Shown in pieces: positions 14,150 to 39,636 of a DNA stretch of 64,000 nucleotides (positions are counted from its first letter, which is position 1; the number at the start of each line of letters is the position of its first letter). Position numbers and translations under genes: made by a program. The notes beneath the pieces were generated by a model that was not told where the DNA came from, did not search any database, and saw nothing but the letters and a program-made list of their open reading frames with translations. Source of the stretch: a virus; IMG/VR virus record IMGVR_UViG_3300034107_000314, positions 91,260 to 155,259 of that record; one strand, given 5' to 3'.

Positions 14150-14380
14150 TCACCTGATCCCAGCATCGTCAAGTATCTTTTTGCATTTTTTGCAATCTAT
14201 TTTCTTTAGTTCAGCAAATGTATTGTCGTTTGGATTAGATTCGGGATCATACATGATCCAATGCATTTTTCTCTCCTGACCACATAAAGACATAGGATAA
14301 CTGTTCCAGTCACCGTAATGGGCTACTTTACTTCTTGCGGTAAATATTCTGAAAAATTCACGTATTTGCATTATATGCAT
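14150..14380 (-). CDS. small H-x-LC-x-CxxC Zn-binding protein (paralogue 1)
   Basis: AHY...SLCG...CKKC. Confidence 0.6.
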   Translation of the reverse strand: MHIMQIREFFRIFTARSKVAHYGDWNSYPMSLCGQERKMHWIMYDPESNPNDNTFAELKKIDCKKCKKILDDAGIR

Positions 14381-14882
14381 TTCTTAGTATTTCTAAATCA
14401 TTATCTTTAAAAAATTTATTTATTAGATTGGTTGAATTACTTTCTGCTTTTTCTTTTGTGGCAAAGCGTCCTAAAATATAAGATTTATTTTTAATTCGTA
14501 ATCTTACACTGTATGGATTTATTTTACATCTAGCGTCAAAATGTATATTTTTTGCATTATTATTTAAGCAATTATTGCTTCTATTTGTAAGTCTTAAGTT
14601 TTCTATTTTGTTATTTGTTTTATCTTTATCAATATGATCAATTTCCATTAAATTTGGAATATTTCCATTGTGATATATCCATATCAACCTATGGGTGTAA
14701 TATCTTTTACGATAAAAATTAATCTGCGAATAGTCGCCTAGTCTTTTTTTGCCTCCTGCAAGATCTCCGATTTTAGACCTGCAATGTGAGCCATTTCTTT
14801 TTTTCCAATACAAATTTCCATCTTTATAGTCAAACCATTCTAAAATGATTTCTTGCGGAGGATATTTAATTATATGTTTCAT
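14358..14882 (-). CDS. HNH homing endonuclease (HNH_3 plus AP2-like tail)
   Basis: GNLYWK, HRLIW.YH.G, IDHID....NN.IENLR, LGRFATKE.A. Confidence 0.9.
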   Translation of the reverse strand: MKHIIKYPPQEIILEWFDYKDGNLYWKKRNGSHCRSKIGDLAGGKKRLGDYSQINFYRKRYYTHRLIWIYHNGNIPNLMEIDHIDKDKTNNKIENLRLTNRSNNCLNNNAKNIHFDARCKINPYSVRLRIKNKSYILGRFATKEKAESNSTNLINKFFKDNDLEILRNAYNANT

Positions 14883-20737: not shown

Positions 20738-20805
20738 ATACTTTTGGCATGAAAGTTACACTAGATTATTTAAAGTATAAAAGTAATATCTTAGCGTGCA
20801 ACTAA

Positions 20806-22783: not shown

Positions 22784-25056
22784 TTAAGAATACATTTCTT
22801 TCAATTCATTTACTTCCATCTGAGTGTTTACTATGTTCAAGGCCACTAGCATAGCAAAGTAGATTTGCTGCGATAGTTCCTTGTCACCCTGACTTACTTG
22901 ATTAGCAAGTGTATAAACCAAGGTAGATAAGACTCTATTCTCTTTATTGAGTTCAAGAGCCTTATCCTTAGCATACTTGAGCAGATCTCTCATAGCCTCT
23001 CTATGGACACTCTCTCCCACTTCTACGTCAATCTTTGGTAGCATCATTTATCACTCTCACTTCTACAACAGGATATCCGACCCAAGCATTATATGCCACA
23101 GGAACTTCACGCATGATCCTTTCTCTGAGTTCAGGAGTCATGTAATATTCGACGACTTTTAGGATCTGCTCTTTTTGGTGATGCGTCATGCTCATTATTT
23201 GATCTCGTACTTATAGGTTTTTTCTTCGTAGACTAAAGGCTTTGCCGTACTTACACCCTCTACGATTGCAAGACGATAGCCAAGACGTTCGAGAGCCTCA
23301 TAGTGAGCAGCATCGCTTGACTGTACGTCACAATAGCCACCTTCTTCAGCGTCACGAATGTTTGCATCGGCCTTGAACTCCGCTTCTAAATCTTGTGACT
23401 CGCCAGTTTTTTCGTTGGTTAGGACAAATTTCCAGCTACGCATTGTTGATTCTCCAATGTCACTTTCATGTTATGTACTAGTAGTTTGCTACCACTCATT
23501 GTCACTGTAGATATTGTACCATCTGGAGTCTTGCATGTCAAGATCCAAAGTTGATTATGTCGAACGATTTCGTAGGTGTTCATGATTGTCCCCAATTCTC
23601 AATTTCGTATTGTGTTTCGCCAGCGTTTCGAGCGTAGATAGTTTTATCACTTGCGTAGGGATGGTCAAAGTTGAAAGGCTTATAGATCTCATACTTATAT
23701 AGAGACCCATTCGTCTTTTTTACTACCAGCCCTTTGGACTTAGCTAGTTGTTCAAGAGCTTTGAGTGTTAATCTCATTTGTCAATATCCTCTGGTAAGGG
23801 AAATCCACCAATGACAGGACAGTTATCTCCATCCAATTCGCCTTGAGTTCGGATACCCATATTCTCTAGCTCAGCCTCAAACGCCTCTTGACTATCTAAT
23901 AGACGATCAAGCAGTGTTATTTGATAGTATTCAATTAGACTTTCTATATCCATACTGTCAACCGACAACTGAGCCAGATTCTTACAATTACTGTATGTGT
24001 TCTCGATCATATCTTTCCCTTTCTTGTACTGCAATTATATCATATGAGGGGCTGAATGTCAACCCCCCAAGCTATATATTTTTAGTCAATCTGGGCGAGC
24101 AGTTCGCCAGCACGCTTGGCCGCGATGATTTCGGCCAGCTTGGAGAGATCCTTCTTAGGCTTGCGAACTTCGTCGCTTCGTCGCATGGTCGGCAGTTCTA
24201 CGCCAACTTCCTTAAGCTCTTTGCGGAGCTTGAGAGCCTTCTGGTAAGACGTTTCAAGGTCAAGGCCAAAATGGTCGGCAACGTCTTGGATCGTGCCACT
24301 GGTGACGTTTGTAGCGGCATCAAAGCCACGTTGGAAAACATCCATATAAACAGACACAAAATCTTCAGCATTGATGAACTTGCGTGTTGTTTTAGCCATC
24401 GGTATAGATCTCTTTCTTTAGATAGAAGATAGTGGATTTGGCTTCAAACCAGTCGTGAGTGAGATCCACTTAACTCATCATACGTTTGACTGGCTATACT
24501 ACTATTATACAGGATAGAACGCAGTTGTCAAGACTTACTTGGTGAAAATTACAGGATTCACCATTTTTACACATGAGAGGGAAGCAATGCGATTGAACCC
24601 CTTGTCAGTGTATTGCAGGACGACATATTGACCATTAGAGCTTACACCCTGACGAATGATCTTACCATCACGAACCTTGAGGATATTACGATTGCCGCCT
24701 ACAGGGTAGGAAACAACCAACTTACGACCGTTGCGAACATTGATTGACTTGAGCATATCTTAGATCTCCTTAGAACTGACACTTGGTTACTGACCACACA
24801 TATATTCTAACACAGGTGAGTTTACTTGTCAAGCATACGGCCAATAATCTGATTTTATTTCATGTTTCAGATCCTTGACCTCAGCTTCAAGTAGAACTAC
24901 GTATTCCTCTAGCTTTTTATGTATTTCTTGATAGTAGCGGTCAGCTTGTGACCCTTCCCAATCATAACCATAATCCTTAACCTGATTAAGAATGCACTCG
25001 TCATATTTCTGTCTAGTAGAGGCAAGCTCATTTTTCACCTGTTCAATCTTACTCAT
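22784..25056 (-). CDS. early small hypothetical genes (22784-23047, 23195-23443, 23580-23777, 23774-24010, 24082-24399, 24535-24756, 24829-25056)
   Basis: Most have their own TTGACA..TATAAT-type promoter and RBS; 24082-24399 has an HTH-like TIQDVADHFGL segment. Confidence 0.55.
24431..24495 (-). ncRNA. pseudoknot RNA motif copy E3 (5' leader of 24082-24399)
   Basis: AGCCAGTC/GACTGGTT, TGAG/CTCA, loop AGTGGAT pairs ATCCACT after CCAA. Confidence 0.7.
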
Positions 25057-25173
25057 CTTTTCACTCCACTTCGTTTCGTTCGTTTCTCACTTCCTTACTC
25101 CTATATTATACATCATAGAAAGCTGTTGTCAAGCCCTGTGGGGTGTTATTTTGGAGATTATTTTATATTGTTG

Positions 25174-25250
25174 TAAGTGCTTGTGGTGTAAGGACTTGCG
25201 GCGAGGCGCGCTAGCGGGGTCGCTGTAAATCCTTACGTAGTAAGTACTTA
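25174..25250. repeat. 77-bp paired-dyad site, copy 1 of 7
   Basis: TAAGTGCTTG-N5-TAAGGACTTG-N27-TAAATCCTTA-N5-TAAGTACTTA. Confidence 0.9.
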
Positions 25251-25251
25251 C

Positions 25252-25279
25252 GAAAAAACCCACCGCAACGAGCGATGGG
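25252..25279 (-). terminator. intrinsic terminator after the tRNA operon
   Basis: CCCATCGC-TCGTT-GCGGTGGG-TTTTT. Confidence 0.75.
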
Positions 25280-25294
25280 CCACTTTAAAAGGAA

Positions 25295-25368
25295 TACCCC
25301 GATCAGGATTTGAACCTGAAACCTACAGCTTAGAAGGCTGTTGCTCTATCCAATTGAGCTATCGGGGC
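25295..25368 (-). tRNA. tRNA-Arg(UCU)
   Basis: Loop CT-TCT-AA. Confidence 0.92.
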
Positions 25369-25373
25369 TTATA

Positions 25374-25437
25374 TTGAGTATTTTGGTCATAAGATAATCT
25401 CAGGTAAGAATACTCAAACTTACTTTAGTGATTATCT
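25374..25437 (-). ncRNA. pseudoknot RNA motif copy E1 (between tRNA-Leu and tRNA-Arg)
   Basis: AGATAATC/GATTATCT, GTAAG/CTTAC, loop TTGAGTATT pairs AATACTCAA after CCAA. Confidence 0.75.
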
Positions 25438-25439
25438 AA

Positions 25440-25524
25440 TACGGATGATGGGAATCGAACCCATATGAGGTTTAATCCTCGACAGATTTTAAGTCTGTTG
25501 CGTATACCATTTCGCCACATCCGC
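25440..25524 (-). tRNA. tRNA-Leu(UAA)
   Basis: Loop CT-TAA-AA, long variable arm. Confidence 0.92.
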
Positions 25525-25529
25525 ATGAA

Positions 25530-25602
25530 TACCCCTACGGAGAATTGAACTCCGGTTTCAAGATTGAAAATCTTGCGTCCTAGGCCACTAGACGATAAGG
25601 GC
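25530..25602 (-). tRNA. tRNA-Glu(UUC)
   Basis: Loop TT-TTC-AA. Confidence 0.9.
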
Positions 25603-25611
25603 ATTTACCAC

Positions 25612-25684
25612 TTGGCCTATCGGGGTACGATCCCGAAACCTGTCACTTATAAGGTGACTGCTCTACCAATTGAGCTATAGGCCA
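25612..25684 (-). tRNA. tRNA-Ile(UAU)
   Basis: GTCAC-CTTATAA-GTGAC; T-loop ATCGTAC (A54). Confidence 0.85.
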
Positions 25685-25689
25685 GTAGA

Positions 25690-25753
25690 TGCCATTTTTG
25701 GACTGAAGTCAATCTCGTTTGGGAAATGGCAAACCCAACTTCATTGATCGACT
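25690..25753 (-). ncRNA. pseudoknot RNA motif copy E2 (at the TSS of the tRNA operon)
   Basis: AGTCGATC/GATTGACT, TTGGG/CCCAA, loop TGCCATTT pairs AAATGGCA after CCAA; 5 nt after a TTGACA-17-TATAAT promoter. Confidence 0.75.
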
Positions 25754-25764
25754 ATCTTATTATA

Positions 25765-27549
25765 TCACTTCACTTTCAGTTTGTCAACTAGACGCCTGAG
25801 AAAACTCTTGTTAATCTTCTGGACATTTACGAGACGACCATCGTAGAATGACTTGATTTTATTATCACTCAACTGAATGGTCAGCAAATACTGTGATCTC
25901 TCAAGATCCATGTTACGCAAGATTGTCTCGTATCGCAGTCTATGTTCAAACATATCACGAACTTGGATTACAGTACCTTCATATTCCTTGATCTCATATA
26001 GGGTATGAGCAGGAAGATGAGTACGATCTAATTTCCGTTCGATGTACTGGAACTTGACTTTGTTACCAGCGGTCAATTGTGCGATCATCTCTATCTTCTC
26101 CTGAAAGGTTTGAATCATCTTCATCTCACTACTCTATTATACCATCTCGTATTCACTTGTCAAGCAACTTTTTCGAGAACTTTCCTCGAATCTGTATTCG
26201 CCAGCAAAGATTTCGTTCAACGTCTCTAGGCTAGCAATGAAGTCACGATAAGATGAGAACTCATCAATATCGGTTTTTTGGTTATCGTATACTTTGCCAG
26301 TTGACAGGTTTGTCATCTTGTAGAAATAGATCATTCGTCTTCTCCTATTTCAAAAACTTCCCAGTCGTCTACATCCTTAGTAGAAAAATACTCTACAGTA
26401 TAAGGATACTGTTCTATCTTCTCATTTGCTATTTCTTTAGCATGATCTCTATTCTCAGCTTCAACGTCGATATCAACGCCGTGAATTTCGTACACTCTGA
26501 CGACATACTTCTTCATACATTACCCCGGATAGATAGAGATATTGAAACCACTCAAGAACGCATCGGACAACAGCTCAAATCGACCACCACCGTGGCTTGG
26601 CATGAAGATATGAATATCTCCATTATCTGCGATGTTACCAGAGAACATCTTATCAAGAGTTGGCACATACAGCAAGCAGTTCGTTTCCATCACTCACTCC
26701 CTTTCTTACTACTCTATTGTATCACACGATCCTGTCTTGTCAAGCTCAAAATGCCTTAATCGTAAGATTTTGAATTGGCAAGAGAGAGATGTTTATCACT
26801 TTGGGCTGCTTTGGTTCTTCGACCCTTACCTCTACGCTTCCCACTTTGGGAGCTACCAGAGCAGGAAATGGGGCTTCCCGCTTCTGGAAGTGTTTGCATC
26901 CACTGCATGACAGGATCAAAACCGCAATAATCGTCAATCGCATAGGTCACTCCTTTGTTAGTTTCCCTATATATATTATCGACATTTTGCGGCTCCCTAT
27001 CCAGCTTATTCTCCCAAAATTCAGCAGAAAATTCAAGAACATCTCTCATCGGCTACACTCCCTATAAAAAATTAAACTTCTTCAGGCCAGTTAAACCACA
27101 GTTGAGGTTGATTCTTATCTATAAGATAGTCTTCATCATCATTATCTAGCATGAGTGCATCATGATCTAGTATATATGTTGAATCGTTTTCTACATCGTA
27201 CAATTGAATGTCAGTGTCCAAGAAACGCTCATCAATCTGAGCTTCTTTAAGTTCACGCCATGTCATGGTCGATATCCCTTTTATCAGTGGTTCGTTCCCA
27301 CCGTTGTTTATGTTCTACTACATCATGCAAATATTTCTTGCCATCGCTGTTGAATGTCCATACATCCATCACTTCTTCCTGTTCAGGGATGATAAGATCG
27401 TCATCACCACTTGGGTCGTACCCCTTAAGAGCTTCGCGAGTTGCCCCCCGAAGTTTCTTGTTACATTGTTTCTTGCTACTCTTATCAGAGTCACCAGCGA
27501 TTTTGAAGATTGGCGTTTTGCGATATGACTTACCCACTTTATTCTCCAC
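25765..27549 (-). CDS. early small hypothetical genes (25765-26124, 26137-26334, 26331-26516, 26746-26943 lipoprotein-like, 27072-27266, 27253-27549)
   Basis: Tandem ORFs; 26746-26943 has a lipobox-like LSCSGC; 25765-26124 is weakly WYL-like. Confidence 0.5.
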
Positions 27550-27697
27550 TTTCAGGACATGAGATGCTTAGCATAATTCCACACATGAATAGCGTAAATA
27601 CCATCATAGATTATACCTTCATTAAAACCTCCAACAGAGCCGACAGATTGTTGTGTATCATGATACTATTATACCATACGGATACAGGAATGTCAAG

Positions 27698-27769
27698 AGC
27701 CGAGGGAGGGATTTGAACCCCCAACCTTTGCTTTACAAAAGCACTGCTCTACCGTTGAGCTACCCCGGC
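27698..27769 (-). tRNA. tRNA-Thr(UGU)
   Basis: Loop TT-TGT-AA. Confidence 0.9.
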
Positions 27770-27772
27770 GAA

Positions 27773-27844
27773 TGGAACTACTGGGGGACGATCCCAGACT
27801 AACACATTAAAAGTGTGCGGTGCTGCCAGTTACACCATAGTTCC
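27773..27844 (-). tRNA. tRNA-Lys(UUU)
   Basis: Loop CT-TTT-AA; T-loop ATCGTCC (A54). Confidence 0.82.
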
Positions 27845-27899
27845 AAGCTAGGACCACATAATGGTCCCGTTTCATATCGCACACATGGTACGACAGAAG

Positions 27900-27971
27900 C
27901 TGGTCAGGTAGGACTTGAACCTACAACCGTTCCGTTAACAGCGGAATGCTCTACCATTGAGCTACTGACCA
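27900..27971 (-). tRNA. tRNA-Asn(GUU)
   Basis: Loop CT-GTT-AA, G73. Confidence 0.92.
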
Positions 27972-27977
27972 AAGTAC

Positions 27978-28103
27978 GTTTGAATGGGAGGAATCGAACC
28001 TCATCTCACCTCTTATTCCACCTAGATTATCTGACCACAGAATGCAAAGATGGGAATTGAACCCATTCGATCTAGTCGGGACGCTTCCTGCGTTCATTCA
28101 AAC
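27978..28103 (-). ncRNA. tRNA-like RNA with two T-arms
   Basis: GTTTGAATG/CATTCAAAC closing stem; ATGGG(TTCAATT)CCCAT and GAGG(TTCGATT)CCTC; inner CTAGAT/ATCTAG; TCTG(TGGT)CAGA. Confidence 0.65.
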
Positions 28104-28105
28104 AT

Positions 28106-28186
28106 TGCGTGCTAGTGGAATCGAACCACTTAAGGCGTAGCCACCTGATTTACAGTCAGGTCCGTTATCCAACTCGGTCAACACGC
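28106..28186 (-). tRNA. tRNA-Tyr(GUA)
   Basis: Loop CT-GTA-AA, variable arm GGCTACGCC. Confidence 0.88.
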
Positions 28187-28198
28187 TTCGTATTACTA

Positions 28199-28782
28199 TT
28201 ATACACCAGATTCCAATTTTGTCAACCGATCTTTCAATTCTTTTATGATTTTCTCAAGTCCGGCGACTTGCCATTCGGCGATGTTCAGCCGTGACTCAAT
28301 TGATGGTGGCTCTGGCTTATCAGCATAGTCGCAGAAGTTGAAAGTCTCAATTCGGCTATGCTCATAGTGAACAGGTTCGCCATGTACAGTCTGGATTCCA
28401 TCGGGCGAGTAGAACTTCACTAAGATATGATTGTCTCCATCGTCCCAACCGTCAGCAGCTTCCAAGCATTCGATATAGTACCAATTCCTATAGTCGGGAA
28501 GCTGGGCTTTCATTCTAGCCAATTCAGTGGTACTGGGCCGGAATGTTGTGTGTTTCCAAGATACGCTCATTCTGATATCCTTTTCAATAGGTCAATAGCG
28601 GTTTGAAACTCTGGACGATCTTTGTTGTTGCTTCCTAAATTCCTTAGTAGCCACAACACGTTGTCTTCTCTCAGTTCTATTCTACCACGGGGAACATCCA
28701 TTGTCAAGAGTAATTCCATAAGAGCTACCCTAGTTTTTAAAAAGAAGATCTCATCGTTGAGTGTGTCTATGAAATACGACAT
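28199..28782 (-). CDS. two hypothetical genes (28199-28570, 28567-28782)
   Basis: ATGA-coupled ORFs. Confidence 0.55.
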
Positions 28783-28956
28783 CAGAATTGCCCCTTGAAA
28801 ACCATCTTGATTAGTTGACCAACACAGTAACCAGCAACCAGAGCTATGACTTCTAACATCTGCAACTCTCCTTTGAGAAGGGTGACTCGTTTCTTATATT
28901 ACTATTATACATTATCGACATCCTGTTGTCAAGTGTTTAGACCAAATTATTTTAAT

Positions 28957-29062
28957 AAGTTAGCTGACTGTAGCTTAACGTGGCGAGCCTTAATATATAG
29001 GATAATCCAAAGTTAGCTGACTGTAGCTTAACTTTGCGTATCTGATTATATAGGATAATCCA
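28957..29062 (-). repeat. two tandem copies of the ~52-bp AAGTTAGCTGACT repeat
   Basis: AAGTTAGCTGACTGTAGCTTAAC...TATATAGGATAATCCA x2. Confidence 0.9.
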
Positions 29063-29152
29063 CCCCCACCCCCCAGACCACCCAGATTACCCAAACTACC
29101 CAAACCTCCTAATCGCTATAAACCCTATAACCCACCCATCTTAACATCGACG

Positions 29153-29229
29153 TAAGTATATATAGTATAAGGACTTATGGCGTTTCCCCCTGCCGCCCTC
29201 GCCGTAAACCCTTACTGGCAAAGGACTTA
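29153..29229. repeat. 77-bp paired-dyad site, copy 2
   Basis: TAAGTATATA-N5-TAAGGACTTA-N27-TAAACCCTTA-N5-AAAGGACTTA. Confidence 0.9.
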
Positions 29230-29251
29230 TATCAATTGTATTTCAGTCAAT

Positions 29252-29280
29252 AAAAAATGCAACCGCCGAAGCGATTGCAT
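29252..29280 (-). terminator. intrinsic terminator with UUCG loop
   Basis: ATGCAATCGC-TTCG-GCGGTTGCAT-TTTTT. Confidence 0.85.
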
Positions 29281-29345
29281 TTAATATTAATCACGTTGGC
29301 ATAATGATATTGCAATGCCCATAAAGAACATCAATATTATTATCA

Positions 29346-29747
29346 TCAGGCCACCAAGATACCCGCCTTCCGTTGTGTCATGATTTCAATTTGCTTAAGT
29401 CTATCACGAATCCCCATACGCTTTACACCATATACAGGCGAATAGATATTAGGATTGGTTTTAGTTGACTTACGAACTCTAGCGGCTTGCAAGGTGTAGG
29501 GAGTAAGAAAGGGATGAGTCTTTTTCAAGACTGGGCTATTCTTATTTTCCAACATTGCGTAAATGCTATCGGCGAATTGTTTTAATGTCGAATCGGCACA
29601 GTGAGTGCGGAATTCGTTGCCATTTTTTTGAACCGATACCACTTTGTTTCCAAGCAAGAGCAGATCAGATCGGCCAGCGGTGATGCCAGCGGTTGCGTTT
29701 GAAGTCTTGGCAATTTTACGATCTGAGTTCTGAATGCGAATCGACAT
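29346..29747 (-). CDS. basic hypothetical protein
   Basis: AAGGTGA RBS, 133 aa. Confidence 0.6.
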   Translation of the reverse strand: MSIRIQNSDRKIAKTSNATAGITAGRSDLLLLGNKVVSVQKNGNEFRTHCADSTLKQFADSIYAMLENKNSPVLKKTHPFLTPYTLQAARVRKSTKTNPNIYSPVYGVKRMGIRDRLKQIEIMTQRKAGILVA

Positions 29748-29781
29748 GAATATTTCACCTTAGATAGTGAACAATCGGACA

Positions 29782-29948
29782 CCGCGAAGTTGCGGAACGC
29801 AATAGGTGGAATCGAACCACAATTTCAGGTTCAACTTTTTTCTTGATTGAGTCGTTTTTTTAGAACGCCTGTCAAGAGTTGAACATGAAAGAACCATCAT
29901 CGCGGAAGTCAAGTGTCGGAATCGAACCGACATTAAACCATTCTTGAC
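29782..29948 (-). ncRNA. two adjacent tRNA-elbow-like RNAs (29908-29948 and 29782-29905)
   Basis: GTCAAG-AATGGTTTAA-TGTCGG(TTCGATT)CCGACA-CTTGAC; CCGCGA...TGATGG...long stem...GTGG(TTCGATT)CCAC...TCGCGG. Confidence 0.6.
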
Positions 29949-29955
29949 GTAGGGA

Positions 29956-30707
29956 TTATTCATCCCCGAAGAAATCTTCGCACCATTTTTCATAGCTAGA
30001 ACGGGCGTTGAATTCTTGAACGATTGCTTCCAATTGGGCCACGACTTCCATCGGGTCAAGAGCAAACGCCACTTCCATATCCAGCAAATCTTGCTCGGTT
30101 GGAATATAGTCGCCTTGAACATCTTCGCATTGCAATTGGGCGTCGAAATCGTCGAATTGATTTTGCATCTGTCGTTTCCTTTGTTTGAGTCTCGTTTGCC
30201 TTACACCACTATTGTATCACACCGCAAGCGATTGTCAAGAGATTTTTCCATCGGAATCTAGGGAATAAACCACCACGACTTCCAAGCCATTTTTAGCAAT
30301 CCAATAGCCCGCACCAAGTTCTCGGCATTGACGGGCGTACACTATTGCATCATCTGAATTCAGCATGATCGCACGTTGAACGATTATTTCGCTCGTTTCT
30401 ACTATGGTTTCGACATCGGTTGGAATTGCGTATTCAGCCATCTTGAAAGCCCTTGTCTGAGTGTTGTTTGCTTGCCTTACACTACTATTATACCTGATTA
30501 ACTCGCGTTGTCAAGTATATTTTTTTGAATTTCTTCAAATAGTTTTTCAGCAGATTGAAGGGAATCAAAGAAGACCGTTTCCGTTTCTCCGTTGATGGCA
30601 CGCTCAACAGAGAATCCAAAGCTAGAATTCTTTAGCTTGAACATCATCACGGCGTTTTTACCACTGCGAAATTTCCGTAACCCTGTTTTTACAGTCATCA
30701 GATTCAT
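29956..30707 (-). CDS. three small early genes (29956-30168 acidic, 30235-30441, 30498-30707)
   Basis: Each has its own promoter and RBS. Confidence 0.55.
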
Positions 30708-30886
30708 CGTACCGCTCTCCGCTGAGTGTTAGATTCTTTTCTTCTACTGCCATCATACCATATATATCGACCATTACAAGCCCCTACCACCACTATTTTT
30801 CAAAATATTTTTAGACGCTGCCCAGCCGGGGTCACTCTGAGTCAGTATATTATTGTAATGCAATTGCATTAATAATACAATTGATA

Positions 30887-30963
30887 TAACTACTTGCTAC
30901 ATAAGGACTTATGGCGCGCCCCCTAGCCCGGCTCGCCGTAAATCCTTACACCGCAACGACTTA
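30887..30963. repeat. 77-bp paired-dyad site, copy 3
   Basis: TAACTACTTG-N5-TAAGGACTTA-N27-TAAATCCTTA-N5-CAACGACTTA. Confidence 0.9.
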
Positions 30964-31130
30964 GGTCGATTGCATTATAATATAATTAAATTAACATATG
31001 TAAATTAGTTGATGTGATAATTAAAAAGAGATGCAACCGGATATTACCCCGATTGCATTTAATTGTTTAATCAGATGATAATATTGCAATTGCAACGCCC
31101 ACGAAAAAGCAGATTACAATTGTCATTTAA

Positions 31131-31928
31131 TTACCCCACCAAAGAAACGGATCTGGCCGTGACCCTTTCCTTTTTTTTGGCCTTTTTAACCTTGGGCTTG
31201 GCGGGTTGCGTACCGTGAATAATCAAGGCGAATGACTTATTACGGTTGTCAGGGATAGCGGCGTGGGAATCGTCGTTATCGACTTCCAGATTAAAATCTT
31301 CGGCCTCATTTTCATTTTGCAATACAATTGCTTCCCGCAATTTAAATTCATCAATCTTGGAATCGAGTCTACCACCACGACTTGCGGTCAAGACAAGGTT
31401 CGATATAGGATTGACAATTTTCATATCATCAATCCAATAATTTAATGCTTTGGTATAAGCATAAAAGAGGATTGATGGATTATTCATAATCACTTGCAAC
31501 CAAGCTCTGAAATATATGCGGTTGAAGAAATCACCCGCAACGTGAATACGAACGATACCGGCGTTTTTTGGCAAGTTCGCTTGAATTAATCTTGCGATTG
31601 CATTTATTTTCTCAACTTCGCTCAAACGATTGTCGGATACAATCGCACGAATCGCATCGAAATTGGCCTTGCGGAGATTGTAAACATTGGTGTAAACAAC
31701 TTCCTGCGAAGCTGAAAAACAGCGAAATTCGGTATTTGGGCCATCCTGAATCCTACGCTTGCCATCGACCAAAATAGCCCGACTCATACACTTGTCAGCT
31801 TGTGGACATGCCCAGCCTGATAAGAGGTCGAAACTGTAAATCTTACGGCCACCGTCAAGCCACTTGGCAAGAGCGGCGACTTTGTACAGTTTTTTGAGCT
31901 TTGTATTTGCGGCTGAAAACTTGACCAT
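31131..31928 (-). CDS. GP88-like phage protein
   Basis: NTKL, SFDLLSGWACP...C, CFSA, VRIHVAGDFF, FYAYTK. Confidence 0.7.
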   Translation of the reverse strand: MVKFSAANTKLKKLYKVAALAKWLDGGRKIYSFDLLSGWACPQADKCMSRAILVDGKRRIQDGPNTEFRCFSASQEVVYTNVYNLRKANFDAIRAIVSDNRLSEVEKINAIARLIQANLPKNAGIVRIHVAGDFFNRIYFRAWLQVIMNNPSILFYAYTKALNYWIDDMKIVNPISNLVLTASRGGRLDSKIDEFKLREAIVLQNENEAEDFNLEVDNDDSHAAIPDNRNKSFALIIHGTQPAKPKVKKAKKKERVTARSVSLVG

Positions 31929-32002
31929 GATTCTATCCTGTCCTGTGATTGTGATACTGGCGTTACTTGACTAGTGAATTATACCACACCGAATCGGGAA
32001 TG

Positions 32003-32618
32003 TCAAGAGGGTCGAACCACTTGGTTATTGAATACAAACCGCAAGGCTTGCATCAAATCTGAGATGTATGTAGGTTCTGACGAACCGTCAAGATAGTCCA
32101 CACAATAGCTAGAACTCTTAGTATCTTTGGTTAGCGACAATCGGCCATTGAGTGAGAACATGGCATAGTCTGTAATGTTCAGGGCCGGCGACTCGACACC
32201 CTTAACACGAATGAACCACTGACTAGCGATTGATTTTTCATTTTTGTTGAACTTGCGAACCATGCCGGAATCCCCTTGGAAAGTGTTACTTGCTTGACTT
32301 ATTAGATTATACCACGGATCGGCCACCGTGTCAAGAAATCTTTTTAAGATAGTTCAAAAGACTTTGGAAAGTTTTGAAATACCTTACTTTAGGCTCTAGG
32401 CCCAAGCCCCGTTGATATTCCCAAGCGTCAAGTTTGAAGTTTCTAGCGTTTGTAATCGAGACCGATCCAAAGTTGGACTTGACAACGAAATTCCTACGAA
32501 CTTCGAAGTTAGTGTTAAAGCCCATATTTTCTAGGCTGAATAGTTGAAGCTGTGAAAAGCTCCACCCCGTTGACGTTGAAGCACTTCGGATAACTCGCTC
32601 AATGTCCAGATGATCCAT
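32003..32618 (-). CDS. two small early genes (32003-32263, 32331-32618), probably paralogous
   Basis: Likely starts MVRKFNK and MDHLDIE; both end in a F/I..L/F..L..Y/F helix and stop inside the next -35 box. Confidence 0.5.
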
Positions 32619-32804
32619 GTTTCTTTCCCTGCTAGTGTGATCTTGCCTTACATATATATTATCGGCTATCGCGGCCCAAAGATCAAGCCCATTTGGCCTA
32701 GATAAGAAATTTCTTATTTTCAAGATTTGCTATTGTGTTGGGCCGATCTTGTCGATATACTATATAGATCAAGTCAGTCACCACTATTCAGAAAGGTCAG
32801 AACT

Positions 32805-33329
32805 ATGCCGAAATACTATCGTCGATCATCTGGAATCGTTACCCGTTATTGGGTAGTAGAAACATACTCTTTTCAAACGGCCAGTGATCGTGAAACCTTT
32901 TTTGCTTGGATCAAAGGTCAAGATGAGGGCAAAGTTGACGATGTAGAAATGGATGGATGTTCTATTACAGTTCGCTGGAATCGCTGATTTTCACCACCAC
33001 CATAAAGGATAGATATGTCCAATTTTACCAGAACCGATCTTGAAATTCTCGCGGCCTTTGATATTCCTACCAAATGGCTTCCCGCCAAATATCAAAACGG
33101 CCAGTCACACGTTAATGCAATTGCATTATTAAATCAGCACAAAAAAGCTGAGAAAGTTGCAATGAAAAAAGCTGCCAAAGCTCAGGCCAAAGCGGATCGG
33201 GCCATCCGATTATCCCATTACATATGTCAAGTGCAACGTGGGGAAGAAATACAATTCGACGTTAATGAAATGCAATTGTATAGCAATCAATTAAAATTCG
33301 TACAGGGCTTGTATACAAGGCTCAAATGA
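32805..33329 (+). CDS. two small genes on the opposite strand (about 32805-32987, 33015-33329)
   Basis: AAAGG RBS before each ATG; divergent promoter at about 32733-32761. Confidence 0.55.
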
Positions 33330-33348
33330 GCCTATAATGCAAACGATA

Positions 33349-33461
33349 TAAAGCCTTGCACCGTAAGGACTTACGGCAAGGCCCGTAGCGGCGAACGCTC
33401 TAAATCCTTACAGGGTAACGACTTATATCACAGTCGTAAATCGTTACCCCGTATAGACTTA
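33349..33461. repeat. 77-bp paired-dyad site, copy 4, plus a third dyad (33437-33461)
   Basis: TAAAGCCTTG-N5-TAAGGACTTA-N27-TAAATCCTTA-N5-TAACGACTTA...TAAATCGTTA-N5-TATAGACTTA. Confidence 0.9.
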
Positions 33462-33465
33462 CGCC

Positions 33466-35380
33466 TTAATGCAATTTCTCTGAGAGTTTATATCGCATTT
33501 TATCTACCATTTTATATAAGGCATCATCGTACCCTACATGATGTTGAATTTCATCGACTGTATCATCAATGAAATCTTTTAATATTTCAATATTCAATTT
33601 GAGAGTTTCAATCTCATCTCGTTTATTGGGGAATATTGTATGAATTGCATTATCGTTCATGTAATCAGATCCAATCATTTTGGCACTCCTAATACAAGGC
33701 CATTCTGGAAATTGAATTTGTCGCCGTTATTGTATCTCACAAGCCATTCATAGTTTTTTTGAAAGATGCAATCGGCGACCATCTCATAATTCTCATATTT
33801 CATCAATTGCAATAGAGCATTTAAACGCTCTTTAGTTGTGGCACTACGAACGCCACCATCGTAAATATAGATGGAACCGGCGATACTTTTATCAGCGATT
33901 GTATTTCCATACAAACGCAAAACCTTTCCATCTGTGGTTGTATTTCCATTGCGTTTAGGCTTTCCAGCAAGAAAGGCTGAAATGACTTCGCGTGATATTT
34001 TTCTCATACTAGTGTCCCGTTCCTGAAATTGCGGATCAATGTTTTGTTGAGTTCGTGAAGATTTTTGACTTTCAACTCATACCATTGCTTCTCATATAAA
34101 GCCTTGGCGAGTTCCATTTCAAGATACTCGATCCGAGCATCTTTATCTGAGTCGATATTGATCTTATTTCTCGACATCGAAAAAACCACCGTAATCTCTA
34201 GGATTGTGAATTGATGCCACCATCAATAGGCCAGTGAAACCAAGAACAGCGATGATGAAAAAATCACTCATTTGATTCTCTTTTCTAGTTGTGCGATACG
34301 GGTACAGATTGCCATCGTGTCATTTTCCGATTCAATATCCGAATCACCATTGATTAGGACATTCCGCAGGAATTGAAGTTCTTCCATATCACCGTCAACT
34401 TGATCCATGATACCATTCAGGGTGTTTAGGATCTTGATTAGCTTTGCCATCTGTCGTTTCCTCGTTTGACTTCCGCGTTTCTTATACTTCTATTATACAC
34501 TGCTAATACGGATTGTCAAGAGTTTATTTTACGATTTGCAATGCTTTCTTGTAACATTTTTGAAGCGGCCTGAATAAGTTCTTCGGCCTGTGCTGGCGTG
34601 TATTTGCTTGGTTCTGTTTTTTGAATATAGGCGTCCACTTTTTTGGACTCGCTATTTGTTAAACAGTCTACACAGACATCACCAACGGTGCGACTGATTT
34701 TCATCGAAATCAGATTAATGATGGGTGAGGATGAATCGGGCGTTTGATCGTCGATGTAGTAAACACTCTCACAGCGACCGCATGTGAACCGTTCCATTCT
34801 TTCACCATTCATTCCGTATACCGTTGACATTTTCGTTTCCTTCGCTTGATTACTGTCATCTATCACTATGTATATTATACGCTATGCTGATTAGAAGTCA
34901 AGCATAATTCCAGAAGAATCTTTCGATATTCTTTCCGGCCCATTGTTGCTTGACCATATCGGCCACAATCTGTGAGACATTATCATAACATCCATCGGAC
35001 GTTACGATGATAAACTTGCGGTAGGTTTTACCACTCATTACCACGTTCACAGAGACCTTTTCTTGAATCAGCATTTTCGTTTCCTTGACTAGTGGCTTGT
35101 TTCTTCTACTACTATTATACGACATCCAGCCCGAATGTCAAGAGATTGTTTCGACCAATCTATTAAAATCAAAGAAATATTGTGGTATTTTTTTGCCTGC
35201 TTCCTGATAACGATAGTTTGTTCCATAGTTCTTGGCAAGTTTGTACTTTCTACCATATCCGTTAAGATCCGCTACAATTGCGGTTATCGTTCCCTTGTTT
35301 TCATTGCATACCACATCGGCCCCGCCATCAAAGCCCAGAGCCTTAAGAGTTGTTAGTTGATCTTGTGTGAAACCGTTCAT
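33466..35380 (-). CDS. early small hypothetical genes (33466-33678, 33675-34007, 34004-34189, 34268-34450, 34516-34830, 34898-35074, 35138-35380)
   Basis: Tandem ORFs with RBS and individual promoters. Confidence 0.55.
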
Positions 35381-35597
35381 GATTCTGTCCCTTACTTGTG
35401 TTGATTGCTTACCCTTATGTATATATTATCGTCTATCTAGGCCCAAAGGTAAAGACAATTCCCAACTATTTTGAAAAGTATTTTTGTACACTAATCAGAC
35501 CTGTATATCTAATTACTATTGGATCTATATATCCGATTTTAATTTAGATAATTAGACCTAGATATCCAATTACACCTGTCGCGGCTATCTGATTACA

Positions 35598-35674
35598 TAA
35601 AGTGTTACACCGTAAGGACTTACGGCGTTCGCCGCTGCCGCGATTTTCGTAAATCCTTATACAGCAAGGCTTTA
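35598..35674. repeat. 77-bp paired-dyad site, copy 5
   Basis: TAAAGTGTTA-N5-TAAGGACTTA-N27-TAAATCCTTA-N5-CAAGGCTTTA. Confidence 0.9.
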
Positions 35675-35821
35675 TGACTTGTCACCAGTCACAAGGCCCA
35701 TGCTCCCATACATCCACATATGTAATTTCATTTATACGATATGTGCATTCATATGCAATCACATCGCCGTTATCATCATAGGCAATTGCAATTGAATCAT
35801 AATCAGTTGAGTAGTATAGCA

Positions 35822-37218
35822 TTATTCAGCCATCTCCTTTTTCATCTTCCGAATTTTTTCTTCGTTGTATCTTATATACATTTCGAGACTAGGATTACAA
35901 GTCCAAACATCTGCGATTAGTATAGCACGGGCAGCTTTCACTACTTCGATATCGTCTTGCAATTTCTTTATTTTCAATTCAATTTCCGACATAGCGGTTT
36001 TCATCAACAACCTTCTTCTTCCGTTTGAATGTGTACAACACCTTTATTATCTGTCAGCACATTAACTATGTCTTCTTCACACTGTAAGTGATCGTAAGGG
36101 TAATCGACCAAAACTTTGGCGTTTGGGTCAAGTTTGGACAATTCAGCAATCAATTCAGATACGGTCATTATTTAGCCCCTTTGATTAAAGCCTTCAATGC
36201 TTCCAATGTGTTAGCCTTTGCGTCAGGCCCATCCCACCCATCGGCTATTTCAGCATCATACATTAGCAATGAATCAATTGCCATATGAAATTCGATATAG
36301 AGATCCAGTTGCTTTTTTGTGGCCGATTGTTTGTGAGTCTTAGCTTTGCTCATCGTCATCTCTCTACTTGGTTACTTGCTTCACTTCACTAGTATATTAT
36401 CGACTATTCCAGCACTAAAGTCAAGATGGTTTTTTGAAATTCTTTACGAGTTCATCATCTGCCTTATCTGCCTCATGGTCAACCGTAAGGCAGAACAATA
36501 CAGCAGTTCCAGAGGCGTTACTAGAAAGCCCACGAAGTTTTAGGTTATTATCCCGTGTACAGAAAGTCACAACGGCATCATCCGATAGATCAGCTAGCAT
36601 TGCGAGTAGAGTAGCTTTAGTCGTCATAGTATCGTTCCTTTGTGCTGGTTACTGTCATCTCTATCACTACGTATAGGATACCATATATATCGACATCCTA
36701 CAAGATAATTCTCAACTATTTTTACAGTTCGTCCATATCTTTTAACGCCTTGACGATAATGGCGTGAACCTTGTCAGAAATGGCATCAACCACCAATTTG
36801 GCTGGCTTATCGTCGTCGTCTTGACTACAAGAGATTTCGCTAGAAATGCTCAAGAGCAATTGGACAAGATCATATTTCTTCATTGTATCGTCATTCATCG
36901 TATCGTTCCTTTGGGCTTGGTTACTGTCATCTATCTCTTATATATATAGTATAGGACATTTCCTATACATAGTCAAGACAATTCTGAAACTATTTCCAGA
37001 TATTCCATAGGTATCATGTAACCTTTCTCGCACCATGAGCTACCCCATTCAAGGCCATTCTTGCTCAATTCTGGGCATTGTTTGTTATACTTGCCGTTAT
37101 ACTTCCAGAGTACTTGACCAACCCTGAAAGCTATAGGCTCGACTTGGTAATTGAATTCGCCAGCAGCTATTTCAAAGGCTTGCTTGACTACTACTTTGTT
37201 TGAGTATTTGACGTTCAT
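35822..37218 (-). CDS. early small hypothetical genes (35822-36010, 36168-36359, 36421-36627, 36973-37218 and others)
   Basis: ORFs preceded by a shared leader GATAGATGACAGTAACC...AAAGGAAC. Confidence 0.5.
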
Positions 37219-37390
37219 GATTCTTTCCTTTGCGTTGATTGTTATCACCTATCTCTTATATATATAGTATCGTCTATTTCGTCGCCTATGTCCACATAAT
37301 TCTCAACTATTTTGAAAGATTGTCGAAAGTATTTTTGTACACTAATCATACCTACTTATCCTATTACGCATGTGGCTCTAGCTGATTACA

Positions 37391-37467
37391 TAAGGTGTTA
37401 CACAGTAAGGACTTACAGCGAGCCGCTTAGCCGCGAATTTCCTAAATCCTTATACAGCAAGGGCTTA
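37391..37467. repeat. 77-bp paired-dyad site, copy 6
   Basis: TAAGGTGTTA-N5-TAAGGACTTA-N27-TAAATCCTTA-N5-CAAGGGCTTA. Confidence 0.9.
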
Positions 37468-37493
37468 TATCAATTGCATATATATAATAACTA

Positions 37494-38134
37494 TTACATT
37501 AGACTATCATCCTCATTTGGGCTATCATCAACCTCAGCCAATTGTTGTGCAATCTCATCTATTTGTTTTTTCCATTCTGCTGCTATGATATCACAATCAG
37601 CTTGAAATTGAACGCACCAATTAACACAATCGGCACAGCGTGTATTAATAGGATATTCGATCAATTCACCACAGAAATCACACGTGTTCATTATTCGCCC
37701 TCCTTTTTTGAGCGAGCGGCTTGCTTTGCCGCACATGCCTTGCAGCACGTCCCGCCCCAAGCGTCATTAGCGACGCAAAGGGCCATCTCTCCGCAGTAAT
37801 CACAATCCGTCACCACATATACTTCGCTCATCTTTTCTTCCCTTTGCTTGGTTACTGTCATCTATCTTTTATACGTATAGGATACCACATGTACCCATAT
37901 CTTACAAGACAATTCTTAGAAATTCTCGTAAGTTTCTTTCGCTTCTTCTACGCTTGCAAGATTCCACATTTTGCGAACCTTGCCAGTGACTAGGCAAGTG
38001 ATTGCCAATACGAAACCGAAATCCCGTGTTTGGGATACGCTACACATACGCTTGGCATCAACCTTGCTATATGAGTATTGACCGAATTTGTTGCGACTTA
38101 CAATCCAACCGCTGTTTGTGATCGTTGCTTGCAT
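37494..38134 (-). CDS. small early genes (37494-37691 CxxC Zn-finger-like, 37916-38134)
   Basis: AGGAGG RBS; CDFC...CADC. Confidence 0.5.
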
Positions 38135-38296
38135 GTTCTTGTCCCTTAGCTTGGTTACTGTTCTCTACTTCTTATATATATATTATCGTCTATTTGGTGG
38201 CCCATGTCTACATAATTCCTAAGTATTTTAGAAAGTTTATTTGTACACTAATTAGACGTTCTTATCCCATTACACCTGTGGGTCTAGCTGATTACA

Positions 38297-38373
38297 TAAG
38301 GTGTTACAGTGTAAGGACTTACGGCGTTCGCCGCTAGGGGGGATGCTATATCTCCTTACTACATAAGCCTTTA
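38297..38373. repeat. 77-bp paired-dyad site, copy 7
   Basis: TAAGGTGTTA-N5-TAAGGACTTA-N27-TATCTCCTTA-N5-TAAGCCTTTA. Confidence 0.85.
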
Positions 38374-38431
38374 TGATCTGCTAATATATATACATACGTT
38401 GATATGATAGGCAAAAAAAAGCTGTATGGCG

Positions 38432-38614
38432 TTAACCACACTGCCCACTTGTTAAACAAGTGAAGTACGTTAAAGTACATGTTTTTGGGACGACAAATTG
38501 TTGAACATGCTGGCGAGTTGCATAGAACCCGCCGCTCCTAACATACGTCATTGTGTAGACTTCGTTGGTTGTGTTGTTGGTGATTGTGACGCTGTACATA
38601 TTGGTTGTGTTCAT
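38432..38614 (-). CDS. small hypothetical protein (rightmost gene of the early region)
   Basis: AGGACAG RBS, own promoter. Confidence 0.5.
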   Translation of the reverse strand: MNTTNMYSVTITNNTTNEVYTMTYVRSGGFYATRQHVQQFVVPKTCTLTYFTCLTSGQCG

Positions 38615-39216
38615 GATTCTGTCCTGTCCCTTGTGTTAGGTATCCGTCACTCATCTCTTATATATATAATATAGCACATCACTGATCTATCGTCAAGATT
38701 ATTCACCTACTATTTTCAAAGATTCTCGAAATATTTTCTTCTCTTTTTTGCTATTGTAATCTGCTGATTATGTCGATATAATATATAGAGAAAGGCAAGG
38801 TGATAGATGAATAACTATGTGATGCTGGTAGTGGTGATGGGGTGTCCGGTTGGGCTATATGCGATGATGGTAGTGAATATGATGGTTGAACCATTTAGAA
38901 AGGATAGGTAAGATGAGGGGGTGGTGGTTTTTTGTTCATTAGTTAACCCCCCGATTTTCTCGAAAAAAGGGCGGGTGGGTCTTGCGCAATCCACAACTCT
39001 AAAAAATAAAGTATCACCCTATTTACTAAGAGTAAGAAACATGTAAACCAAACCTGTTAACAGTCAGTTTCTTAAAGTCCCCAAAAGCATACCTGAGAAA
39101 CTCTAGTCTAATCCCTATATCCTGCACCTCTATGTAGCAATAAACATCATTATGTATAACGATATCAACTCCACGATTCTCATACCTCTGGATTAACTCC
39201 TTAGTAATTAACCTCT

Positions 39217-39636
39217 CTAGTTGCGATTGATAAGCATATCCGCTTCTTCCGGGGTTTTGTCCCCCTTTATACAATTGCACGTTTTGCACGAAGTAACAAG
39301 ATTCTCCCATGTTTCTTTCCCCCCTCTACTTTTTGGCATAACATGATCTACGGATAATTCCCCTTGTTCAAGTTGCTTTCCGCAGTACACACAGGTATAA
39401 TTATCTCGTAAGAATATATTTCTTCTATTAGGTTTATACATTCTATCGGGCAACTTGATATATTTCTTCAGCACAACAATCTTTGGTATATGATAAGAAC
39501 TTGTTACAGTATTTACCTCTTCTTTGTAGTATTCGACAACATGAACCTTATCAGCCATGTATAGTTTCAAACCGCGTTTCCAAGAAACTATTTTTAAATG
39601 TGTATAATTACTATTAAGTATTGTTGTATTCTTCAT
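39217..39636 (-). CDS. HNH endonuclease (McrA/HNH_5-like)
   Basis: RRNIFLRDNYTCVYCG...SVDHVMPKSRGG...WENLVTSCKTCN..KG. Confidence 0.92.
   Translation of the reverse strand: MKNTTILNSNYTHLKIVSWKRGLKLYMADKVHVVEYYKEEVNTVTSSYHIPKIVVLKKYIKLPDRMYKPNRRNIFLRDNYTCVYCGKQLEQGELSVDHVMPKSRGGKETWENLVTSCKTCNCIKGDKTPEEADMLINRN
39599..39606 (+). promoter_or_regulatory. putative phage late-promoter motif TGTGTATA
   Basis: Same motif upstream of the HNH gene (1862), the candidate ncRNA (19779), portal (44784), protease (46944), 50052 (50008) and 60783 (60735), and on the minus strand at 10555 and 19341. Confidence 0.65.

Follow-up and report, generated by a model that had tools for sequence, protein, structure and literature searches.

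The PeSLs (promoter-early stem-loops) of T4-like phages are early-region cassettes in which a polyG-then-polyC stem-loop, which terminates transcription, lies beside an AT-rich tract and a sigma-70 early promoter (PMC2839356; PMC4122927). Here we describe a 77-bp element that occurs in seven copies in the final 64 kb (hereafter, the window) of a 155,259-bp IMG/VR virus record of an uncultured phage (IMGVR_UViG_3300034107_000314) and in further copies in related phages. The PeSL terminator/promoter cassette appears to be its closest known analogue, to which the element adds two conserved dyads. PeSLs and the element alike are composites that recur between the small ORFan genes of a hyperplastic early region, and both combine a G+C-rich, stem-loop-capable core with an AT-rich tract and a consensus sigma-70 early promoter. 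In both, the insertions, deletions and rearrangements that set close relatives apart fall together with copies, the cases being few for the element. By contrast, only the core of the new element is bracketed by conserved 25-bp dyads, with fixed 5-bp and 27-28-bp spacings and in register with the promoter, whereas its stem is poorly conserved as a helix and lacks a U-tract, and the phages that carry it belong to a lineage unrelated to T4. Termination and the formation of mini-circles, which are features of PeSLs, are at most putative for the element.

Less closely related systems offer further points of comparison. The RIP/RIB (BIME-1) elements of Escherichia coli reportedly consist of two inverted REP units around an IHF site and lie at the 3' ends of transcription units. 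Both they and the element described here are mosaic palindromic sequences of ~100 bp behind transcription units, with G+C-rich palindromes that RIP/RIB combine with the site of a bending protein, the protein sites of our element being predicted; however, the layout is inverted, with AT-rich dyads outside and a G+C-rich middle, and there is no IHF consensus. Unlike REP and REPIN sequences, the element is accompanied by no RAYT-type transposase (PF01797) and is absent from bacterial chromosomes, one phage-like contig being its only carrier in 185,579 genomes. The regulator p4 of phage phi29, a small DNA-bending protein that is active as a dimer and controls the switching of early and late transcription, is said to act on paired dyad sites upstream of promoters A2c, A2b and A3. 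In both cases, several inverted-repeat sites stand at fixed helical spacing upstream of host-sigma promoters, with a known binder in phi29 and a predicted one here, but the sequences are not similar, and phi29 has one such control region compared to 7-16 per genome in the present phages. Finally, integron attC sites, which are 57 to 141 bp long and act as folded single strands with the IntI tyrosine recombinase, resemble the element in being imperfect inverted repeats with two box pairs around a variable centre that bound small promoter-less or promoter-led cassettes. The element differs from them in its fixed length (26-28-bp centre), in pairing without covariation and in the lack of a tyrosine recombinase (PF00589).

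A composite dyad element in the early region

In the window phage, genes left of ~39,700 are encoded on the minus strand, with many perfect TTGACA/TATAAT promoters and 15 tRNA genes, and the structural genes run rightward from 39,771. The seven elements, copies 1 to 7 (25174-25250, 29153-29229, 30887-30963, 33349-33425, 35598-35674, 37391-37467 and 38297-38373), are confined to the first 14.5 kb of this leftward arm, where they are intergenic, amid small, poorly conserved open reading frames (ORFs) of 45-130 amino acids (aa), as are PeSLs. All seven have the layout 10-5-10-27-10-5-10, that is, two 25-bp dyads, each of two 10-bp boxes, on either side of a 27-bp centre. A search of the window for the inner-arm pattern with the gap fixed at 27 nt returned these seven sites, each on the + strand, and nothing in 100 dinucleotide-preserving shuffles. 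A 77-column weight matrix scored the sites at 94-110 bits, with the runner-up below zero across the entire genome, and a 25-bp dyad matrix detected 15 dyads genome-wide and none in shuffled genomes; 14 of these belong to the seven elements, and the one at 33437-33461 is the sole dyad outside them. The centres contain 63-85% G+C, compared to 30-40% in the arms and 38.5% in the genome. The centres of the two dyads lie 52 bp apart in the window phage and 53 bp apart in most relatives, which corresponds to about five helical turns, and within each dyad the invariant TT and AA steps are 9 bp apart.

These results agree with the sites as described in a first-pass annotation of this DNA, namely, seven sites of invariant layout at these positions, a GC-rich 27-bp separator, dyad centres 52 bp or about 5 turns apart, and no further copies in the window, an absence that the weight matrix extends to the whole genome. 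The box form YAA-N4-TTR, which is part of this description, applies to 25 of the 28 boxes; copy 2 deviates from it in its left and right outer boxes, and copy 7 in the inner box on the right. Similarly, copies 1-3 had been placed directly behind a terminator, and T-run-bearing, terminator-like hairpins indeed precede them by ~6, 25 and 67 nt, respectively, in the sense of the minus-strand genes; however, such a hairpin also precedes copy 7, by ~50 nt, which had been overlooked.

Conservation in related phages

The elements represent a real, conserved and previously undescribed family of cis-elements. An initial scan of viral contigs for the inner arms with a free gap of 15-40 yielded 70 viral loci, and the real members among the matches have gaps of 28, 27 or 26; about 17 matches with an AT-rich 26-nt centre, together with singletons at other spacings, were discarded as unrelated or chance similarities. 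With a sequence-only profile built from 56 copies, in which each element is counted on both strands, we obtained 20-32 matches per genome, that is, ~10-16 elements, in each of five relatives, all uncultured phages with complete or near-complete genomes of 149-167 kb. In these genomes, the elements occupy one small-gene early region of 15-25 kb, at intervals of 1-2.5 kb. The boxes are near-invariant across the relatives, despite terminases that are only 53-63% identical to that of the window phage. The centre is 28 bp long in 100 of 138 parsed elements, 27 bp in 36 and 26 bp in two, so that spacer length is held to 26-28 bp in homologues, where the first-pass annotation had named free variation as the outcome that would speak against its proposal.

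Among 185,579 prokaryote genomes scanned, a single real copy was found, on a phage-like 20.9-kb contig binned into a Methylococcaceae metagenome-assembled genome (MAG); therefore, the element is phage-owned and not a host chromosomal signal. Megablast of positions 33000-39000 against phage records found no cultured relative, the terminase matched such records at no more than ~30% identity, mostly in Bacillus phages, and a literature search for the box sequences returned unrelated primer matches only. Hints at the host are in conflict: a planctomycete-type prepilin gene, DUF1559 (PF07596; E 2.7e-42), is present in the leftward arm of G000 outside the window (loci L090-L092), but the sole element-bearing contig in prokaryote assemblies (locus L088) is the one assigned to Methylococcaceae. 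The apparent terminal repeat of relative G001, the sole end repeat seen in a relative, proved to be a 127-bp assembly overlap; it thus carries no information on the order of DNA entry, and the first-pass idea that the sites act on first-entering DNA is unsupported.

Boxes and centre

For the analysis of individual boxes, 56 copies were oriented by their adjacent promoter. In these copies, boxes 1 and 3 are TAAGTCCTTA-like, box 2 reads YAAGGRTTTA and the promoter-proximal box 4 is mostly CAACGACTTA; each dyad consists of two unlike half-sites, with a TAAGTCCTTA-like sequence on the left and a YAAGGRTTTA-like or CAACGACTTA-like one on the right in the sense of transcription. The distal dyad is inverted in ~30% of the copies. 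The outer boxes are not equal either: the fourth base is C in 37 of 56 boxes on the promoter-proximal side, and the mirrored form is present in 4 of 56 distal ones. Box positions 4-7 are conserved (GTCC, GGRT and CGAC types), and conservation extends 6 bp past the outer boxes on either side. Within the centre, few columns are kept: position 2 is G, position 27 is C, and GGC-(W or SS)-GCC forms a core on the axis of symmetry. The one-base difference between the 27- and 28-bp classes falls into this core, and most other columns are far less conserved. The relatives also carry half-elements, in which one dyad and the centre are followed by a T-run, often directly after a tRNA gene. A by-eye check against column counts for an ECF-sigma-like promoter or a sigma-70-like pseudo-promoter within the element gave inconsistent results across copies, and both identities were dropped.

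Double-stranded DNA motif or RNA fold

Four helices could in principle form in the element: a long hairpin through outer-outer and inner-inner pairing, and local hairpins through the left and the right pair. None of the four shows covariation, the pairable fraction at variable positions being no higher than expected for independent columns; for outer position 7-4, it is 0.24 compared to an expected 0.42, which is the opposite of pairing. Moreover, the central 4 nt are perfectly complementary within a dyad in 0 of 138 elements, versus 14.4 and 6.3 expected with shuffled partners, and therefore the half-sites are kept unlike. The RNAalifold consensus is weak on both strands, and four of eight single-copy folds, namely, both strands of copies 2 and 6, are no better than shuffles; copy 1 alone folds outstandingly (-44.6 kcal/mol, z -6.7). 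No Rfam family matched the elements at the gathering threshold or at E up to 1. The folding energies of many centres range from -8 to -24 kcal/mol, but their symmetric pairing averages just ~50%, and no U-tract follows. The layout of an intrinsic terminator, in which a hairpin runs immediately into a U-tract, is found in the half-elements of the relatives alone; in full elements, the stem is followed by a box and not by a T-run. Given the uneven single folds, the weak alignment fold and the lack of a covarying helix, an RNA hairpin was rejected as the identity of the element.

A further comparison comes from the closest relative. In its orthologous copies (loci L076 and L065; 81-94% DNA identity), 4 of 200 box positions (2%) differ from the window phage, as opposed to 19 of 135 centre positions (14%), the latter being near the genome background of ~13% and having a hot spot at the very middle. 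Together, the lack of covariation, the unlike half-sites and the confinement of conservation to the boxes suggest that the boxes are under selection and point to sequence-specific recognition of double-stranded DNA, with a centre constrained in length and composition, rather than to a fold of RNA or of a single DNA strand.

Helical register with early promoters

Of 188 unique elements with flanks, 82 are accompanied, on one side only, by a near-consensus sigma-70 promoter that faces away from the element and lies no more than 70 bp from it; no element has promoters on both sides. As in PeSLs, an AT-rich tract adjoins these elements of the relatives together with the promoter, and in the window the same applies to copy 1 only, which at 41 bp is the one copy of the seven with the promoter spacing typical of the relatives. 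To reduce the effect of shared ancestry, the linkers were grouped into 31 sequence clusters, in which box 4 and the -35 hexamer are separated by 20-21 bp (3 clusters), 30-32 bp (9), 40-41 bp (11), 49-50 bp (2) or other distances (6). The strongest periodicity in a Rayleigh test is at 10 bp (R 0.67, p about 8e-7). The proximal dyad is accordingly centred near -68, -78, -89 or -99, with the distal dyad five turns further up. Thus, in the relatives, the element is in helical register with the next promoter. Only about one in six strong promoters is accompanied by an element.

The early promoters of the relatives (loci L025, L029, L032, L045, L082, L085 and others) share a CCGATA motif in the spacer between -35 and -10 and a C-run just ahead of -35. 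Neither is present in the promoters of the window itself.

Gene order and cassette exchange

The first-pass annotation had placed the sites in gaps between gene modules, and this is where they are: the elements mark the boundaries of transcription units. The window and L076 are colinear over 26.8-36.4 kb, with four elements at orthologous places. Between 36.4 and 38.7 kb, the order of small cassettes differs, and L076 has four elements, versus two in the window; in this rearranged zone, two of four homology blocks end inside an element (copy 7) or at the edge of one (copy 6). These few cases fit exchange between repeated regulatory modules, as described for PeSLs. Six-frame searches of the genome detected neither a tyrosine recombinase (PF00589) nor a Y1/HUH (RAYT) transposase (PF01797), and the elements have no target-site duplications. 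Given the strong divergence of centre and outer boxes among the copies of one genome, nothing suggests that they spread recently. Of the alternative raised in the first pass, that these are recombination sites bounding shufflable cassettes, the idea of cassette boundaries fits the ends of the homology blocks, whereas for recombination sites no enzyme of the two classes sought is present in this genome.

At 35400-38750, the window contains five to seven units of ~100 bp (families D9, D11, D12 and D16-D19), each with a promoter, 5' leader and ribosome site, before tiny ORFs; their number and order are unlike those in L076.

Individual copies and other features of the window

Copy 1 lies ~6 nt past the terminator that follows tRNA-Arg, an intrinsic terminator-like hairpin with a T-run (25257-25281, minus strand) located transcriptionally just upstream, and its outer box is 41 bp from the -35 hexamer of a minus-strand sigma-70 promoter with 12/12 consensus matches (25105-25132) downstream. 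Similar terminator-like hairpins at 29255-29282, 31031-31058 and 38424-38441 precede copies 2, 3 and 7. From copy 2, the nearest consensus promoter is ~220 bp onward, and from copy 3, a weak extended -10 promoter is ~107 bp onward. Copy 4 lies immediately past the stop codon of a 70-aa ORF (33466-33678) and has the isolated fifteenth dyad (33437-33461; 25 bp) ahead of it at a distance of 11 bp; this dyad scores 18-24 bits, and nothing in shuffled genomes exceeds 12. Copies 5 and 6 each stand at the head of a repeated cassette, which for copy 5 comprises a promoter, a 5' leader and a small ORF, and the edge of copy 6 is the end of a homology block common with the closest relative. Copy 7 is the most degenerate one, with a changed right inner box, and the homology block shared with the closest relative stops within it. 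ARAGORN returned the 15 true tRNAs only, and a tRNA-like gene was discarded as the identity of the element.

Two other repeat families occur near the elements. Palindromes of ~25 nt (AAGTTAGCTGAC... type) are present at 28950-29100 and at 20785, 21047 and 21395; two of them lie between element 2 and its promoter and three farther downstream. A short palindromic motif, ATGCAAT / TGCAATTGCA, has many copies at 29230-29290, 30964-31100 and 33150-33340, where it lies within or near the terminators and the flanking sequences of elements 2-4; it may be a second operator-like signal.

Elsewhere in the window, the plus-strand ORF at 50502-55928 (1808 aa), with long arrays of 9-bp-period repeats of the collagen-like Gly-X-Y type, probably encodes a fibre protein. 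Two HNH endonuclease genes are encoded on the minus strand, at 39217-39636 and 14358-14882, the former opening the leftward early arm as its very first gene. A 487-aa minus-strand ORF beside the tRNA cluster (4987-6450) contains a Cas12f1-like TNB domain (TnpB-like, E 1.5e-9); as the genome lacks a Y1 transposase, it is a solitary TnpB in a lytic-type phage.

Proposed function and alternative explanations

We give about even chances to the reading that the element is a composite double-stranded DNA boundary module of the early region, the dyads of which are bound by a sequence-specific, probably dimeric protein. The two 25-bp imperfect dyads would be the binding sites, and the fixed-length, G+C-rich, weakly palindromic centre would place them on the same face of the helix at a separation of five turns. 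In the presumed ancestral arrangement, retained in the relatives and in copy 1 of the window, an integral number of turns would separate the module from a strong sigma-70 early promoter downstream of it, and because of this in-register placement, the bound complex would touch or wrap the upstream face of RNA polymerase. In doing so, it might switch or insulate early units, for instance, through early shut-off or by blocking read-through or supercoil coupling between tandem strong promoters. The centre was probably derived from the stem of a terminator, since in the half-elements of the relatives a T-run comes directly behind the same centre, and the modules, being repeats, could double as points of homologous exchange that reshuffle small-gene cassettes. 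A bolder version, which we consider improbable, holds that the dyads are operators of a new phage-encoded protein that forms a phased complex of ~90 bp at each early-unit boundary, acting as a genome-wide insulator or shut-off device for transcription by the host polymerase and possibly also directing integron-like cassette exchange without a known recombinase.

Several observations weigh against a promoter-coupled protein site. Promoters next to elements match the consensus as well as other promoters do and would thus seem to need no activator, which makes repression or insulation no less probable than activation. For six of the seven window copies, the next promoter-like site is 86-220 bp away or is missing from the vicinity, and the case for promoter coupling is therefore drawn mainly from the relatives. 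There, common ancestry may persist among the 31 linker clusters, and the distance classes were picked post hoc, although the Rayleigh test is independent of these classes. No separate terminator or tRNA gene lies within 70 nt upstream of 68 of the 82 promoter-adjacent elements, and the centre is hairpin-capable in many copies; thus, the centre may have a role at the RNA level, as a terminator or attenuator. Nor did candidates for the binder emerge: six-frame searches of the phage detected no HU/IHF gene (PF00216), Pfam no helix-turn-helix or ribbon-helix-helix domain among 87 small leftward-arm ORFs, and Pfam and PHROGs no DNA-binding domain among early or small leftward-arm proteins, and no p4-like or p6-like protein was recognised. 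Furthermore, early-region proteins are poorly conserved among the relatives, with one family alone common to five of six genomes. This family is represented by a basic 73-aa protein (24538-24756, minus strand), for which the AlphaFold model (pLDDT 84) is an all-beta, SH3/Tudor/bL19-like barrel with best PDB matches at E about 0.01 and TM about 0.7. Judging from the model, the protein may bind nucleic acid; it is a lead only, as nothing ties it to the elements.

The alternative closest to the PeSL precedent is that the element works at the RNA level, with the G+C-rich centre and the paired inner boxes forming a terminator or attenuator stem-loop for upstream early transcripts, and the boxes being kept as part of a protein-bound hairpin or of a processing site of the RNase III type that contains a 5x5 internal loop. 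We regard this as unlikely. In its favour, the PeSL stem-loop does terminate (PMC2839356; PMC4122927), the half-elements with the same centre and a T-run lie directly behind tRNA genes, most promoter-adjacent elements have no other terminator upstream, copy 1 folds exceptionally well (see above), and the inner boxes of the majority class pair at 10/10 positions on the sense strand if G-U pairs are allowed. What tells against it is that no helix covaries and one shows the reverse of pairing, that in the ~30% of promoter-oriented copies with an inverted distal dyad the wobble pairs turn into A-C mismatches on the sense strand, and that the centre of full elements is only half paired, with no U-tract behind its stem. 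In addition, four window copies already stand behind a canonical terminator, the helical phasing with promoters has no RNA rationale, and Rfam contains no matching family even at permissive E values.

A protein of host origin was suggested in the first-pass annotation, which took the dyads for symmetrised IHF/HU-type sites that would fold the DNA into a tight loop through two in-phase U-turn bends. Kinks made by IHF/HU-type proteins are spaced by 9 bp, as are the TT/AA steps of the dyads, a resemblance rather than a test; the 25 boxes that fit YAA-N4-TTR correspond to the 3' half of the IHF consensus, and the five-turn separation and promoter register would suit such bends. However, the seven elements contain no exact match and a single one-mismatch match to the 13-bp consensus WATCAANNNNTTR, and two-mismatch matches show no enrichment in them (~11 per kb versus 18.6 per kb genome-wide). 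The four N positions of an IHF site are without preference, whereas positions 4-7 of every box are strongly conserved and G+C-rich, which counts against IHF because IHF is not expected to conserve them. With half-sites that are always unlike and dyads never perfectly symmetric, no HU/IHF gene in the phage, and the composite site in no bacterial chromosome among the 185,579 species, the IHF/HU assignment is not upheld, and we consider it improbable. Still lower on our scale are dedicated recombination or mobile sites (attC, REPIN or MITE-like), cut or exchanged by a site-specific enzyme and bounding shufflable cassettes. The element looks like paired core-type sites, in that its variable centre has on each side two inverted boxes with a short spacer between them, and this invites the reading, as do the small ORFan cassettes flanked by elements, the different element numbers at 36.4-38.7 kb, the two homology blocks that end in or at an element, and the HNH endonuclease and TnpB-like genes of the phage. 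Yet the genome encodes neither class of enzyme sought, the elements are orthologously placed over a colinear stretch of 10 kb in a close relative, the strong divergence of copies and the lack of target-site duplications do not suggest recent mobility, a tight link to promoters with helical phasing would be unexpected for mobile DNA, and ordinary homologous recombination between repeats accounts for the rearrangements.

Implications for early transcription in large phages

Large lytic phages have dozens of very strong host-type promoters to time and to keep apart, which they do by means that are mostly unknown beyond a small set of model phages. The element described here is a cis-signal of strict geometry that is sharply delimited and deeply conserved. 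It predicts a sequence-specific factor that would recognise a pair of unlike half-sites at a separation of five turns and in register with the promoter, and the element itself could serve as a probe to fish this factor out. Finally, it would extend the idea derived from PeSLs, that regulatory cassettes double as recombination points for the shuffling of ORFans, to a phage lineage unrelated to T4.

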